Positions 3,523 to 12,550 of a stretch of DNA of 12,550 bases are shown in pieces. The translations under genes were made by a program, and so were the position numbers. The notes below the pieces were generated by a model. That model was not told the DNA's origin. It did not search any database and saw nothing but the letters and a program-made list of their open reading frames with translations. The stretch comes from a virus (lineage: Duplodnaviria > Heunggongvirae > Uroviricota > Caudoviricetes), in the IMG/VR virus record IMGVR_UViG_2609459803_000003, positions 1-12,550 of that record. One strand, 5' to 3'. Within the stretch, counting starts at the first letter, position 1; every line of letters starts with the position of its first letter.

Positions 3523-3857
3523 ACAGTTTAACAACACACTACCGTCGCTCGCAACTGATTGCGCTTCCTGTACCGGGTGGAAAAGCGAAGGTGGAGTATT
3601 GCTATGCAGTGAATGTACCAGGTGACAGGGAAATTGTAACCCACAGCTTTGCAGAGTGGGCTGTGGGGGATTTCAACCGGCAGAAGGAGACAGTCCTTTG
3701 CGACAAGTTAACCGCTGGTTCAAAGATCACTACGGAGTGCCCGTCAGAGTCATTCGTTGGGAGCCGGAAACACAACGGGTTATCTACCTCCGCGAAGGCT
3801 ATGAGCATGAGTGCTTCAGCCCGCTCGAACAGTTTCGTCGTAAATTCAGGGAAATAG
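3519..3857 (+). CDS. Hypothetical early protein; the 5' part is well supported, the 3' half of this frame looks non-protein-like (probable frameshift, see findings)
   Basis: ATG at 3519 overlaps the upstream stop (ATGA) and has GGAGAA 8 nt upstream. N-terminal translation [52 protein letters not shown] is protein-like; the remainder (…[22 protein letters not shown]) is Ser-rich low complexity. Confidence 0.5.
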
Positions 3858-3877
3858 AGGTCGGTCATGAGCACTAA
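3626..3877 (+). CDS. Alternative-frame ORF overlapping the 3' half of 3519..3857; probably the true C-terminal reading frame of the same gene
   Basis: Frame open from 3626 (ORF track lists it from a GTG at 3656). Translation ...[58 protein letters not shown] is protein-like. Stop TAA 3875-3877 overlaps the next gene start by 11 nt. No convincing SD of its own. Confidence 0.4.
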
Positions 3878-4484
3878 ATTAACCGGCTATGTATGGGATG
3901 GTTGCGCTGCATCAGGCATGAAATTATCCAGCGTGGCAGTTATGGCCCGCCTGGCTGATTTCAGTAATGACGAAGGTGTGTGCTGGCCATCAATTGAAAC
4001 CATTGCCCGCCAGATTGGCGCGGGGATGAGTACCGTCAGAACGGCTATCGCACGGCTGGAAGCAGAAGGCTGGTTAACGCGTAAGGCGCGTCGCCAGGGT
4101 AACCGCAATGCGTCGAATGTTTATCAGCTTAACGTTGCGAAGCTTCAGGCAGCGGCATTTTCTCAACTGTCAGATTCTGACCCGTCAAAATCTGACGCAT
4201 CAAAATCTGACCCGTCAAAATTTGATGCGTCGAAATCTGGCAAAAAAGCGGGTTTTCACCCGTCAGAATCTGGCGGGGATCCGTCAGTAAAATCAAAACA
4301 TGATCCGTCAGATAAAAAAACTTCTCGTCCGGACGCTTCGCAACCGGACACGCAGACGGATGAACAGGATTTTTTAACTCGCCATCCTGATGCGGTTGTA
4401 TTCAGCCCTAAAAAGCGCCAGTGGGGAACGCAGGATGATTTGACCTGCGCACAGTGGCTCTGGAAAAAAATCATCGCCCTGTAA
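3867..4484 (+). CDS. Replication initiator, lambda O-like (N-terminal HTH DNA-binding domain plus iteron-encoding linker); C-terminal domain apparently missing
   Basis: 205-aa ORF with GAGG 9 nt upstream. N-terminus [70 protein letters not shown] is a winged-HTH replication-initiator type. Middle encodes SDPSKSDASKSDPSKFDASKS from a tandem DNA repeat, as the lambda O gene carries ori iterons internally. Only about 45 codons follow the repeat region before the stop, abutting a rusA remnant. Confidence 0.8.
   Translation: MSTKLTGYVWDGCAASGMKLSSVAVMARLADFSNDEGVCWPSIETIARQIGAGMSTVRTAIARLEAEGWLTRKARRQGNRNASNVYQLNVAKLQAAAFSQLSDSDPSKSDASKSDPSKFDASKSGKKAGFHPSESGGDPSVKSKHDPSDKKTSRPDASQPDTQTDEQDFLTRHPDAVVFSPKKRQWGTQDDLTCAQWLWKKIIAL
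4171..4320. repeat. Iteron array / candidate origin of replication embedded in the O-like gene
   Basis: Four tandem 15-bp units (TCTGACCCGTCAAAA 4176-4190, TCTGACGCATCAAAA 4191-4205, TCTGACCCGTCAAAA 4206-4220, TTTGATGCGTCGAAA 4221-4235), then further CCGTCAG motifs at 4260, 4281 and 4305, and an A-run (4311-4320). GACGCATCA (4194-4202) and TGATGCGTC (4224-4232) are exact inverse complements. Confidence 0.65.
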
Positions 4485-4485
4485 C

Positions 4486-4665
4486 CGGATCCGCGATCTG
4501 GACAACTATAACAAGGCGCTGTTTGACGCCCTGACCCACGCGGGTGTGTGGGAAGACGACAGTCAGGTGAAAAGAATGCTGGTGGAGTGGGGACCGGTTA
4601 TCCCGGAAGGGAAGGTCGAGATCACTATCAGTAAGTACGAGAAACCGGCGGGTGCAGCCGCCTGA
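4486..4665 (+). pseudogene. rusA: rusA (Holliday-junction resolvase) 3' remnant lacking start codon and N-terminal half
   Basis: Frame open only from the stop at 4441-4443, with no start codon before the internal Met. Translation RIRDLDNYNKALFDALTHAGVWEDDSQVKRMLVEWGPVIPEGKVEITISKYEKPAGAAA resembles the C-terminal part of E. coli RusA as I recall it (…[28 protein letters not shown]…). Stop TGA 4663-4665. Confidence 0.7.
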
Positions 4666-4684
4666 TTAAGAGGAGAAACGAAGT

Positions 4685-5482
4685 ATGAATAATCTGATGG
4701 TTATTGATGGTATTGAAGTTCGTCGTGATGCTTATGGGCGTTACAGCCTGAACGATCTGCACAGGGCTGCCGGTTCTCTGGATAAGCATAAGCCTGCATT
4801 CTGGCTCCGCAATGAGCAAACTGAACGTTTAATAAGCGAGTTGCAAATTTGCAACTCGGTCAATATAGAGCCAGTTAACGTTATTCGTGGCGGAAATAAC
4901 CAGGGGACGTATGTCTGCAAAGAACTGGTGTATGCCTATGCAATGTGGATCAGCCCGTCATTCCATCTGAAGGTGATCCGTACTTTCGATATGGTAACCA
5001 GCACACCTGAAAAATTATCCGGGCAGGCTGCTGACAAGATGCAGGCTGGCGTGATCCTGCTGGACTTTATGCGCCGGGAATTAAACCTGTCTAACTCATC
5101 AGTGCTTGGAGCCTGTCAGAAGCTTCAGGAGGCTGTTGGCTTACCGAATCTGGCACCGCGCTATGCCATTGATGCTCCTGCTGATGCACACGATGGCTCA
5201 AGTCGCCCGACACTGTCACTGAGTGCACTGCTGAAACAGTATGGTATCCGCCTGACGGCTAATCAGGCATATCACCAGATGGTGAAGCTGGGGATCGTCG
5301 AGCAGCGCGAACGATACAGCCGTACCGCGATTAACAACATCAAAAAATTCTGGTCGCTGACAGCGAAAGGCTGCATGTTCGGCAAGAACATCACCAGTCC
5401 CGCAAATCCGCGCGAGACGCAGCCGCATTTCTTCGAGTCCCGATTCCCTGAGCTGTTAAAGCTGCTCGATACCGTTCATTGA
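4685..5482 (+). CDS. KilA-N domain protein (antirepressor-like), C-terminal domain of unknown function
   Basis: 265-aa ORF with AAGAGGAGAAA SD before the ATG. N-terminal 100 aa (…YGRYSLNDLHRAAG…KPAFWLRNEQTERLI…VIRGGNNQGTYVCKELVYAYAMWISPSFHLKVIRTFD) matches the KilA-N signature from memory. Confidence 0.8.
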   Translation: MNNLMVIDGIEVRRDAYGRYSLNDLHRAAGSLDKHKPAFWLRNEQTERLISELQICNSVNIEPVNVIRGGNNQGTYVCKELVYAYAMWISPSFHLKVIRTFDMVTSTPEKLSGQAADKMQAGVILLDFMRRELNLSNSSVLGACQKLQEAVGLPNLAPRYAIDAPADAHDGSSRPTLSLSALLKQYGIRLTANQAYHQMVKLGIVEQRERYSRTAINNIKKFWSLTAKGCMFGKNITSPANPRETQPHFFESRFPELLKLLDTVH

Positions 5483-6897: not shown

Positions 6898-7347
6898 TCA
6901 CAAGTGGGGGAAGATTTTTCGTAACACTAACCAACACCTTCCGAAGGTATATAGCGAAATTATAAGGGAGGATAAGCCTAACAGTATGAATAGGAAATCA
7001 ATAGGTTTGCCCGCAACAATAACATCATCAGGTAGAAACATCGCTATCAATGGAAATATACATGCGACGATGAGAGTTAACCCTGTTGAAAGTAATCTAT
7101 TTACCAGAGTTGGTAACACGTTGTTTTGCTTAAGGGCATTAATTGCTCCTTCCTTATCGCTGTTTGCACTACTAAATATAGATATTGCAGCCAGAACAAA
7201 ACCAAACAGGATGCCTGATATAGTCGAGAGCACCCCCGCTGTTGTGAGTACGTCAGCATGCTTCATCGGTTTAAACAGTTTTGTCGCTGCATAGGTCAAC
7301 AGAATCCAGAGGACGCATTTCCAGAGAAAAGTGGCTAATTCTCTCAT
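6898..7347 (-). CDS. Small inner-membrane protein with four predicted transmembrane helices (RexB-like topology); second gene of the cargo cassette
   Basis: Track ORF 6898..7359; the ATG at 7347 has GGAGGA 4-5 nt upstream, the ATG at 7359 has none. Hydrophobic segments by eye: LATFLWKCVLWILLTYAATKLF, VLTTAGVLSTISGILFGFVLAAISIFS, LSTGLTLIVACIFPLIAMFL, IDFLFILLGLSSLIISLYTF. AT-rich. Starts 10-22 nt after the stop of the upstream 313-aa gene. Confidence 0.7.
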   Translation of the reverse strand: MRELATFLWKCVLWILLTYAATKLFKPMKHADVLTTAGVLSTISGILFGFVLAAISIFSSANSDKEGAINALKQNNVLPTLVNRLLSTGLTLIVACIFPLIAMFLPDDVIVAGKPIDFLFILLGLSSLIISLYTFGRCWLVLRKIFPHL

Positions 7348-7368
7348 TGTGTCCTCCATGCTTGGTTA

Positions 7369-8310
7369 TTAGTCTCTGCTAGCGAGCTCATACTGTGCAA
7401 GATAGTTCGCGTTATCAATTTTAGCAGATATCATCGCCGTTCTGATATCAGAATCGGATGGATAACCGCTTTTGACAATGATTGTCTTTGTACTGACCAA
7501 TACTTGGTCAAGTAGACTTTTGGGCGTTCTATTGGATGGCTCTGTTACATCAATTTTTTTAATTTTTAGACCTCCAGAACCTTTTGGAAAAAGTTCAAGT
7601 AGTTCCTTAATAGCATCGGTGACAGAAGTTTTTAGATAGTTAAACCCTTGTTTTTTCGGGCGAATCCGACCTCGCATATTTAATCTTAGATGCGACCCGC
7701 CCATACCAACAACCATGTCAATAATTTCATTAGCTAAAGGGTTTTTAATCTTATAATTAGCTTTGTTAAAGTTTCTTGGAGCAGCAACTATAAGATCGAA
7801 ACTACGTAGGATATTTCCGTCCTCAAGCAGTTCCTTCATGCTCTCTTGTTTCCAAATGGCTTCAAAAGTGACGCTTTTTAAATCAGTTTTGTTATACAAA
7901 ATGAATGCCAGATCATTTACTTTGGGCCCTATATGGTTGAGGGTCATAGCTAATAAGTCCGTTTCGTAGTAATAGATAAAATATGTTCTTTCAACTACAG
8001 AATCTTTATCATTTAAAGGAATTGTTCTCTCACTACCTGTAGCATCCTCGATGAACGGTAGTAGGCATTCCCTTCTCCACGATACGTAACCAAAGTAACA
8101 TTGCAGTGTGGTATCTTTTTGAAGAATAACTAACTTTAACCCTCGATTTGGGGTGTCTGTTGTGTAAGTTATTGGAAAAGTTACAGTATCTGCTGTGGTC
8201 ATTTGCTCAAAGGCTAGTTTTGCAGCAGATGTGCCATCTTTTTTGCTTCCATTACCAGTGAAAAAACCAACTCTCACTCGCCTGGTTTTATTCTTATTTT
8301 CTGTACTCAT
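7369..8310 (-). CDS. Hypothetical soluble protein (313 aa), first gene of the antisense cargo cassette; no recognisable catalytic motif
   Basis: Long minus-strand ORF with protein-like composition: MSTENKNKTRRVRVGFFTGNGSKKDGTSAAKLAFEQM…ERTYFIYYYETDLLAMTLNHIGPKVNDLAFILYNKTD…IIDMVVGMGGSHLRLNMRGRIRPKK… No Walker A, HNH, DEDD or similar motif seen by eye. Double stop TAATAA. AT-rich against GC-richer phage flanks. Weak SD (GGA) before the ATG at 8310. Confidence 0.75.
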   Translation of the reverse strand: MSTENKNKTRRVRVGFFTGNGSKKDGTSAAKLAFEQMTTADTVTFPITYTTDTPNRGLKLVILQKDTTLQCYFGYVSWRRECLLPFIEDATGSERTIPLNDKDSVVERTYFIYYYETDLLAMTLNHIGPKVNDLAFILYNKTDLKSVTFEAIWKQESMKELLEDGNILRSFDLIVAAPRNFNKANYKIKNPLANEIIDMVVGMGGSHLRLNMRGRIRPKKQGFNYLKTSVTDAIKELLELFPKGSGGLKIKKIDVTEPSNRTPKSLLDQVLVSTKTIIVKSGYPSDSDIRTAMISAKIDNANYLAQYELASRD

Positions 8311-8433
8311 TATCGATCCGAAATAATTTTAGCAACCGTGTGAAAAATACAACAAAAAAAAGAGGAAATCATTAGCGCGGTCCGCAAAAAACATTGTAAT
8401 CTGTTAAGAGTGGTTACTTCGCCACACAGCTTA

Positions 8434-8460
8434 AACCCGCCGTCGAGCGGGTTTTGTCGT
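8434..8460 (+). terminator. Rho-independent terminator upstream of the lysis genes (tR'-like)
   Basis: AACCCGC (8434-8440), loop CGTCGA, GCGGGTT (8447-8453), then TTTTGTCGTTTCTG. Plus-strand orientation, about 150 bp upstream of the holin start, as lambda tR' precedes S. Confidence 0.6.
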
Positions 8461-8606
8461 TTCTGTGGCTGGGGATTCGTTGGTCCTGGCCTATTCCGCA
8501 GTTCTCCATCGGTTCGGCTTCTTTGATGTTTCCGCTTCTGATTTGCGGTACATGATGTTCCCTCAATTTGCACCTGCTGTATCAGCGAGGTGAGAGATAA
8601 CTACAA

Positions 8607-11127: not shown

Positions 11128-11165
11128 TACCCGCGAAAAATGAAATTTAACCAGGAGTGCCGCAT

Positions 11166-11486
11166 ATGGCTGGAACGGCGGGGCGTTCCGGGCGTCGCCC
11201 TAAGCCAACGGCGCGCAAGGCGCTGGCCGGAAACCCCGGCAAGCGAGCCCTGAACAAAGATGAACCTGTTTTTACGCCCATCAAAGGTGTTGAGCCACCG
11301 GAGTGGTTCGCTGAAGAAGAGCTTCCTCTCCCCGAACAGAAAAAAATCGAAAGAGTCCTGCGTGATGTCGGACTCTCCCGCACCCAGGCCAAAGCATTCA
11401 TGGCCGGGGGCTATAGCGCACTGTCCCTGCGCGACGCTGAGGATGTGGGCTCTGCACTGAATGCACTGAAAAATCTGAACTTCTAA
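11166..11486 (+). CDS. Terminase small subunit, P27 family
   Basis: ATG at 11166 with AGGAG 8 nt upstream (track ORF starts at a GTG at 11157). Product MAGTAGRSGRRPKPTARKALAGNPGKRALNKDEPVFTPIKGVEPPEWF… matches the P27-family N-terminal signature from memory. Confidence 0.85.
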   Translation: MAGTAGRSGRRPKPTARKALAGNPGKRALNKDEPVFTPIKGVEPPEWFAEEELPLPEQKKIERVLRDVGLSRTQAKAFMAGGYSALSLRDAEDVGSALNALKNLNF

Positions 11487-11500
11487 TCAGGAGAAATACG

Positions 11501-12550
11501 ATGGCGGTTGATATTAAAGATGTCGAACAGGTCGCGCAGGAGCTGCAGCAGAAGTTTGACGACTTCAAAGCAAAGAACGACAAGCGCGTGGATGCGATTG
11601 AGCAGGAAAAAGGCAAGCTTGCCGGGCAGGTGGAAACCCTGAACGGGAAACTCAGCGAGCTGGAAAATCTCAAAAGCGACCTTGAAAAAGAGCTGCTTGA
11701 GCTGAAACGTCCGGCTGGTGGAGCGCAAAATAAACTGGCCACCGAGCATAAAGAGGCGTTTGTGGGCTTCCTGCGTAAAGGCCGTGAAGACGGTCTGCGC
11801 GATCTGGAGCGTAAGGCATTGCAGGTGGGTACCGATGAAGACGGTGGCTACGCCGTGCCGGAAGAACTGGATCGCAACATTCTTAACCTGCTGAAAGATG
11901 AAGTGGTGATGCGTCAGGAAGCCACGGTGATCACCGTTGGCGGTTCCGACTACAAAAAACTGGTGAATCTGGGCGGTACGGCTTCCGGATGGGTGGGGGA
12001 AACGGATACGCGATCCCAGACTGCCACCTCCAGACTGGAGCTGATTGAACCTCTCATGGGGGAAATTTACGGCAACCCGCAGGCTACCCAGAAAATGCTG
12101 GACGATGCCTTCTTCAACGTGGAGGCCTGGATCAACAGCGAGCTGGCAACCGAATTTGCCGAACAGGAAGAAATTGCCTTTACCTCAGGCGATGGCACCA
12201 AGAAGCCGAAAGGGTTCCTGGCGTATGAATCCACTGATGAAACCGACAAGGTCCGGGCGTTCGGCAAACTTCAGCATATTGTATCCGGCGAAGCGACCGC
12301 GGTGACCGCAGACGCCATTATCAAACTGATTTACACGCTGCGTAAGGCACACCGCACTGGCGCGAAGTTCATGATGAACAACAACAGCCTGTTTGCCATC
12401 CGTCTGCTTAAAGACAGCGAGGGTATTCGCCTTGGTTGCTCATACCAGGCCTCCGGTATTCTAAAGGGGAAAATAAGAGTGCGTTGCGAGAGTGCTGATG
12501 CTTTTTTAAACGTTAAGCATAGTCGGCGACAGCAGGAGGATTATTCTTAA
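11501..12550 (+). CDS. Major capsid protein, HK97 family (with N-terminal coiled-coil delta domain); 3' end aberrant, probably truncated or disrupted
   Basis: AGGAGA SD 7 nt before the ATG. N-terminal 100 aa is coiled-coil-like (MAVDIKDVEQVAQELQQKFDDFKAKNDKRVDAIEQEKGKLAGQVETLNGKLSELENLKSDLEKELLEL). The body contains …GAKFMMNNNSLFAIRLLKDSEG…, resembling the HK97 gp5 segment …HNIALLKDNEGRYIFGG… After about position 12435 the translation (CSYQASGILKGKIRVRCESADAFLNVKHSRRQQEDYS) no longer resembles capsid and stops at the window end. Confidence 0.75.
   Translation: MAVDIKDVEQVAQELQQKFDDFKAKNDKRVDAIEQEKGKLAGQVETLNGKLSELENLKSDLEKELLELKRPAGGAQNKLATEHKEAFVGFLRKGREDGLRDLERKALQVGTDEDGGYAVPEELDRNILNLLKDEVVMRQEATVITVGGSDYKKLVNLGGTASGWVGETDTRSQTATSRLELIEPLMGEIYGNPQATQKMLDDAFFNVEAWINSELATEFAEQEEIAFTSGDGTKKPKGFLAYESTDETDKVRAFGKLQHIVSGEATAVTADAIIKLIYTLRKAHRTGAKFMMNNNSLFAIRLLKDSEGIRLGCSYQASGILKGKIRVRCESADAFLNVKHSRRQQEDYS

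Follow-up and report, generated by a model that had tools for sequence, protein, structure and literature searches.

The 12,550 nt stretch of DNA analysed here (the window) contains an O-like replication initiator gene that breaks off within its coding sequence and is joined directly to the 3′ part of a rusA gene. Very probably this arrangement is the scar of a single deletion reaching from O to rusA in an SfIV/SfII/CPS-53-type lambdoid prophage. The deletion would have taken the C-terminal part of the initiator, the genes between O and rusA and the N-terminal part of RusA, and would have left an initiator unable to start replication and an inert piece of rusA in a dead prophage remnant. The O-rusA scar is ordinary prophage decay, an already known phenomenon.

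Junction and deleted segment

The features that meet at the junction are as follows.
3867..4484, plus strand: truncated O-like replication initiator gene, 205/313 codons, stop TAA at 4482–4484 (open reading frame list and identity to the intact gene)
4482..4483, no strand: deletion junction, a 2-bp TA present in both parents; O is matched up to 4483 and rusA from 4482 on
4482..4665, plus strand: rusA 3′ remnant, codons N70–A129 and stop, in the +1 frame relative to O, without its own start codon or RBS

At the breakpoint the parental O sequence reads ...atcatcgccctgTA and continues with cgagcagg, the parental rusA sequence reads ...tttcctccagaTA and continues with accggatcc, and the window reads ...atcatcgccctgTAaccggatcc. 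The TAA stop of the truncated O is created by the join, from the TA of O codon Tyr206 and the A of rusA codon Asn70. There are no inserted bases, and rusA follows the O stop with a spacing of 0 bp instead of the approximately 10 bp given in an earlier note on this DNA.

By BLAST of the window, both flanks are colinear and co-oriented with phage SfIV, E. coli SCEC020023 and E. coli R12, and the identity to SfIV/SfII/SfV-type alleles is 98.5–99.8% on both sides of the junction. The ends display no mobile element, att site or long direct repeat, which together with the colinear flanks is the pattern of a simple deletion scar. Compared with SfIV and E. coli SCEC020023 the window is short of 1,346 bp; against E. 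coli R12, which has a Dam methylase gene, the difference is 1,996 bp. The deletion took O residues 206–313, RusA residues 1–69 and, between them, a PerC-family gene and a LexA-DNA-binding-domain gene; the Dam methylase gene is possibly among the deleted genes as well. The deleted length is either 1.35 or 2.0 kb because the ancestral allele may have been without or with dam. A megablast search of 50,697 phage records and 5,426 complete E. coli genomes found no record with the two parts adjacent. The earlier note had proposed a single deletion that runs from the middle of O into the middle of rusA and spares the origin, with a breakpoint around 4475–4491. The colinear flanks in SfIV, SCEC020023 and R12 bear out the deletion, position 4482/4483 falls inside the proposed interval, and the alignment to intact lambdoid relatives that the note had called for narrows the breakpoint to the 2-bp TA.

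A 2-bp overlap is expected at ~16% of random joins, from (k+1)(1/4)^k(3/4)^2, and microhomology this common by chance says little on mechanism. The sequence at the breakpoint indicates a homology-independent, illegitimate join. One deletion by illegitimate recombination would connect O codon 206 to rusA codon 69/70 at the common TA. A longer microhomology was considered, but the rusA of Lys8385Vzw aligns 4 nt further left only by way of a 1-nt gap and this candidate was rejected. A BamHI site (GGATCC, 4487–4492) was likewise considered as a cloning scar and rejected, since every intact relative has GGATCC here in its native rusA.

The truncated O-like gene

Three elements within the O-like gene are retained in the window.
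3930..4076, plus strand: winged-helix DNA-binding domain HTH_36, O residues 22–70 (Pfam PF13730, E-value = 1.8e-11)
4169..4316, no strand: iteron array within the O coding sequence, the putative origin (repeat search families D1–D3)
4464..4470, plus strand: A7 homopolymer run, 12 nt upstream of the junction (from the sequence)

Positions 3867–4483 correspond to nt 1–617 of a 942-nt O-like gene, with 99.8% identity in E. coli SCEC020023 and 99.0% in SfIV orf41. In a megablast search with positions 3867–4700, the same segment shows 99.0–99.4% identity in phages SfIV, vB_EcoS-569R4 and Kati. The intact 942-nt gene, annotated as 'helix-turn-helix domain / replication protein O', is carried by phages SfIV and SfII, and at least 80% of the full-length allele is present in ~1,576 of 5,426 complete E. 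coli genomes. PHROG matches were obtained with a full-length relative (313 aa) as the query. This relative matches phrog_391, 'replication initiation O-like', end to end (E-value = 1.3e-135), and phrog_11896 aligns to it at residues 1–203 only, which is the part kept in the window.

The iterons consist of five to six GTCAAAATCTGAC-like 13-mer units at an exact 15-bp spacing in positions 4169–4244, with related copies near 4260, at 4278–4292 and at 4292–4316. That the gene is O-like, with an HTH domain and iterons, had been recognised in the earlier note and is confirmed by the HTH_36 match and by the 15-bp-spaced array at 4169–4244 and beyond. In the AlphaFold2 (AF2) model of the 313-aa O, the iteron stretch encodes a disordered linker, residues 100–161, which follows a helical N-terminal domain (residues 1–97) and precedes a confidently predicted C-terminal domain. 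Past the last iteron ~55 O codons remain, where the earlier note had counted about 45. Codon 25 of the window O (3939–3941), within the DNA-binding domain, encodes Val, where 11 aligned close homologues have Ile, a lineage-specific substitution.

The conserved C-terminal domain occupies residues ~162–304 of 313, and the protein encoded in the window ends at residue 205. The pLDDT values are 85–92 across O residues 190–280, and the truncation cuts through the middle of a predicted helix at residues 189–213. Of the C-terminal domain, the 205-aa O keeps no more than the first beta-hairpin plus one half of the first long helix. The lost part comprises 108 residues of a 313-aa protein and not the approximately 140 aa first suggested by comparison with lambda O. 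Residues 206–313 match phrog_391, phrog_2357, phrog_2514, phrog_277 and phrog_4880 with E-values of about 1e-12 to 1e-48, and annotations of these families are replication initiation O-like, DnaD-like helicase loader and replisome organizer. Foldseek comparison of the full-length O model with the PDB gave only weak winged-helix matches (best E-value = 0.25), with no match for the C-terminal domain. Because the conserved C-terminal domain is incomplete, the window copy is to be regarded as a gene fragment and not as a full member of the O-like initiators.

In phage lambda, O binds the iterons through its N-terminal domain and recruits the P-DnaB helicase complex through its C-terminal domain. 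By analogy with these domain roles, the window O would be origin-binding but initiation-incompetent: the 205-aa protein may still bind the iterons but would not build a replisome, and the origin, although kept, would be unusable by its own initiator. Given the loss of the C-terminal domain, a loss of replication function is a reasonable inference.

The rusA remnant and downstream genes

The rusA remnant shows 99.5% nucleotide identity to the rusA 3′ end of phages mEp460_4F5 and 2H10 and of Stx2a phages, and positions 4482–4700 match the rusA 3′ end together with the start of the KilA-N gene at 99.5% (megablast, E-value = 7e-109). Identities this high, for O as for rusA, lie well outside what chance would give. 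Directly past the O stop the +1 frame reads RIRDLDNYNKALFDALTHAGVWEDDSQV...AAA and then a stop, which is the last 60 residues of the 129-aa RusA; the translation of the remnant begins RIRDLDNYNKALFDAL. The remnant retains 60/129 codons (47%) of rusA, more than the C-terminal third assigned to it before. A full-length 129-aa RusA relative matches PF05866 at residues 6–118, and of the fold of ~120–130 aa that characterises a full-length RusA, residues 1–69 are absent. The conserved RxRDxDN and DD motifs of RusA are recognisable in the reading frame of the remnant.

This frame is open only from 4441 and contains no ATG, GTG or TTG before the GTG at 4546. The earlier note had described the remnant as lacking a start codon, a Shine-Dalgarno sequence and the N-terminal half, and had allowed for a missed upstream start; the description holds and there is no such start before GTG 4546. 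The start codon and RBS of a translatable open reading frame are both missing, and the rusA piece is presumably inert since residues 1–69 are missing as well.

Two open reading frames are annotated or predicted from this point on.
4546..4665, plus strand: 39-aa GTG open reading frame within the rusA remnant (open reading frame list), in GenBank as KDT73135.1 and KDU12533.1, 'endodeoxyribonuclease RusA family protein'
4670..5482, plus strand: intact KilA-N gene, RBS GAGGAG at 4670–4675, ATG at 4685 (Pfam KilA-N, E-value = 2.1e-26)

The 39-aa open reading frame carries neither the RDLDN acidic motif nor the N-terminal 90 residues of RusA, and is probably no real gene. The spacing from the rusA stop to the KilA-N gene equals that in intact relatives. 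The KilA-N, DUF968 and Q genes would keep their own signals and stay in one rightward transcription unit. A promoter and terminator scan of positions 3700–4900 yielded no plus-strand terminator and one weak promoter-like site that does not rise above shuffled controls; there is no sign that the junction creates new regulatory signals.

The O fragment is annotated in GenBank (KDT73201.1/KDU12700.1) as 'bacterial regulatory s, gntR family protein' and not as a pseudogene. Both GenBank coding sequences, of 205 aa and 39 aa, are fragments of an initiator and a resolvase gene and deserve a pseudogene flag.

Intact relatives and known systems

The gene order in intact relatives is O (313 aa), a PerC-family gene (164 aa), in some a Dam methylase gene, a LexA-DNA-binding-domain gene (108 aa), rusA (129 aa), KilA-N, DUF968 and Q. 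The PerC-family gene is yfdN-like, and its start overlaps the O stop, an arrangement of translational coupling; it displays an uncharacterised N-terminal domain of ~100 aa (phrog_23071). No recognisable P, DnaC or DnaB-type loader gene is found from cro to Q in intact SfIV, SCEC020023 and R12. The absence of P, DnaC and nin genes from the window, pointed out in the earlier note, is thus real, but its reading as deletion damage does not stand, because intact relatives including the plaque-forming SfIV are also without them. The matter touched on here, helicase loading in P-less lambdoid phages and the partner of the initiator C-terminus, concerns the intact relatives and not the scar.

The SfIV, SfII and SfV modules share alleles, gene order and the iteron-bearing O gene with the window and represent the intact parent architecture. 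SfIV is UV-inducible, forms plaques and lysogenises, and its replication module consists of orf41–45; the methylase gene is carried by SfII and SfV but not by SfIV (PMC3851460). The module includes the O-like orf41, the PerC-like orf42 and orf43, with the LexA DNA-binding domain. In comparison with SfIV the window is without the 1,346 bp from O codon 206 to rusA codon 69, and without terL, the portal gene and the right end.

The cryptic prophage CPS-53 (KpLE1) of E. coli K-12, from which the yfd gene names in the relatives derive, belongs to the same family and is the nearest case described so far; its copy of this O allele is degraded. In K-12-type genomes the match to the O gene is confined to nt 234–942 and is followed by yfdN. 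The two degraded copies are reciprocal: K-12 retains the 3′ part of O and yfdN, whereas the window retains the 5′ HTH domain and the iterons and has no yfdN. The K-12 yfdO is taken here to be a defective O pseudogene.

Lambda O resembles the window family in that the initiator gene lies downstream of cro/cII-like genes, encodes an N-terminal DNA-binding domain and contains the iterons. It differs in having a Phage_rep_O domain where the window family has HTH_36, and the intact relatives of the window have no P homologue. Another RusA-family gene located in a defective lambdoid prophage is the silent Holliday-junction resolvase gene rusA of DLP12 in K-12. Upstream insertions can switch on this full-length gene, whereas the window rusA, with codons 70–129 only, out of frame and startless, would not be activatable.

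Distribution of the junction

The window is identical to positions 3–12552 of JNMQ01000004.1 (GCA_000700425.1), and the identical 205-aa O is also encoded in JNMH01000015.1 (GCA_000700245.1). Of these two junction-bearing genomes, at least one bears the name Escherichia coli 3-373-03_S3_C3. In an independent Logan assembly of run SRR1186636, a 965-bp contig also spans the junction and encodes the 205-aa O. The junction-spanning exact 30-mer AAATCATCGCCCTGTAACCGGATCCGCGAT has one match in IMG/VR, which is the GCA_000700245.1 contig, and none in the GTDB species-representative genomes or the JGI metagenome contigs; in these three collections the O-rusA scar is not found beyond the two isolates.

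The second isolate (GCA_000700245.1) is identical to the window from ~1250 to ~4800, junction included, and differs by 2–5% from ~4800 on, through KilA-N, DUF968 and Q. The change in identity marks a homologous-recombination breakpoint within the KilA-N gene of an already damaged prophage. It shows recombination with other lambdoid sequences after, or around, the O-rusA deletion. A lesion common to two isolates with different neighbouring alleles implies that recombination acts on a prophage that is already dead.

Alternative explanations of the junction and the short O

An artefact in which fragments were misjoined in a short-read draft containing several lambdoid prophages would fit a source that is a draft assembly, and E. 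coli genomes contain multiple rusA copies (median 2, up to 8 matching places); the Logan contig, moreover, stops 24 bp past the junction. However, that contig is a third, independent read assembly with the same junction, and the flanks are colinear for kilobases on both sides. Because the junction is present in two separately assembled genomes with differing downstream alleles, mis-assembly is for practical purposes ruled out. A real junction might instead stem from illegitimate recombination between two co-resident lambdoid prophages, as part of a larger rearrangement or a hybrid prophage. Tandem prophage material is found in the source genomes (two integrases, a Dit-like tail gene in L005), and the switch of KilA-N, DUF968 and Q alleles in the second isolate, ~270–320 bp to the right of the junction, is an example of nearby lambdoid recombination. 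That switch is not at the junction itself, however, and in E. coli R12 a single intact prophage matches the two flanks, at 99.1% and 98.6%, with order and orientation kept. Since both flanks match one R12 prophage, an internal deletion needs no extra assumption, and an origin from two prophages is very unlikely. The deletion may also have had a two-step history, e.g. a smaller early lesion that was enlarged later.

The other question is whether the short O is a product of decay or a natural functional variant, with the initiator ending at this point in some phages and the rusA-like piece a normal part of the module. Several short forms (228–232 aa) are present in the databases, and the alignment of phrog_11896 ends at residue 203. 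Full-length close homologues are 285–347 aa long, with a dominant cluster of 5,414 members at 313 aa; they do not end at this point, a possibility that the earlier note had raised against its own reading, and the junction occurs in 0/50,697 phage records. The known short forms are independent lesions with no conserved alternative C-terminus. The homologues P0009, P0012 and P0018 (232–246 aa) are frameshifted exactly at the A7 run, after WLWKK, and P0008 has a 13-bp deletion just downstream of the run; P0006 is an in-frame fusion of O to an antiterminator. As the truncation also lies mid-helix in a confidently folded, conserved domain and the neighbouring rusA piece is a startless, out-of-frame half gene, a natural short O is extremely improbable. 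There is a very slim chance that the 205-aa O serves as an origin-binding decoy, or dominant-negative protein, against superinfecting SfII/SfIV-type phages, or that an O(1–201)-RusA(70–129) chimera is made through slippage at the A7 run. If the decoy were true, the independent truncations of O at codons 200–232 elsewhere would reflect selection and not a mutational hotspot. Among the aligned close homologues no evidence was seen of selection behind the independent lesions, which may reflect a mutable homopolymer run and frequent module loss. Loss of one A from the A7 run in the window would fuse O(1–201) to the +1-frame rusA remnant.

Further deletion scars and state of the prophage

The O-rusA deletion is accompanied by two more scars.
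11329/11330, second scar: terS runs, at about codon 55, into the 3′ end of the prohead-protease gene
11157–11486: hybrid terS-protease open reading frame, 109 aa, the product of the second scar
12421–12425, third junction: 5-bp overlap, GGGTA, at which the major capsid gene (from 11501) passes into chromosomal DNA

With E. coli R12 as the reference, the second scar lacks 3,965 bp, comprising terL, ymfR, the portal gene and most of the protease gene, and its two sides overlap by 2 bp; other terS alleles match to 11338, which suggests an overlap of up to 10 bp. The second scar is absent from all complete E. coli genomes searched and from IMG/VR. At the third junction, the chromosomal side is the start of paoA, with yagU, ykgJ and ecpE as neighbours (continued in L006, 12553–14486). 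Here all tail genes, the right prophage end and adjacent chromosomal genes are deleted. As the capsid gene is fused to the paoA-yagU region and the right end is gone, attR has presumably been lost as well.

Essential lytic functions and the ability to excise are lost, as in cryptic prophages. Whatever the state of its replication gene, the prophage is predicted to be unable to package or excise. With two more deletion scars beside the O-rusA junction it is a dead remnant, and the O-rusA deletion would be one of at least three scars in a non-inducible element. With its three deletion scars within 12.5 kb, the locus illustrates at base resolution how a prophage decays step by step. Its value lies mostly in annotation; no long-standing question arises from it.

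Between Q and the holin gene the window also carries genes on the opposite strand.
6898–8573, minus strand: two or three antisense genes, encoding 153 aa (phrog_8552), 313 aa (phrog_7651) and possibly an 87-aa open reading frame

Pfam and PADLOC searches gave no match for these genes, which are situated at the usual cargo (moron) position. In the second isolate, an SDH-protease gene is found between Q and the holin gene and replaces the two antisense genes of the window.
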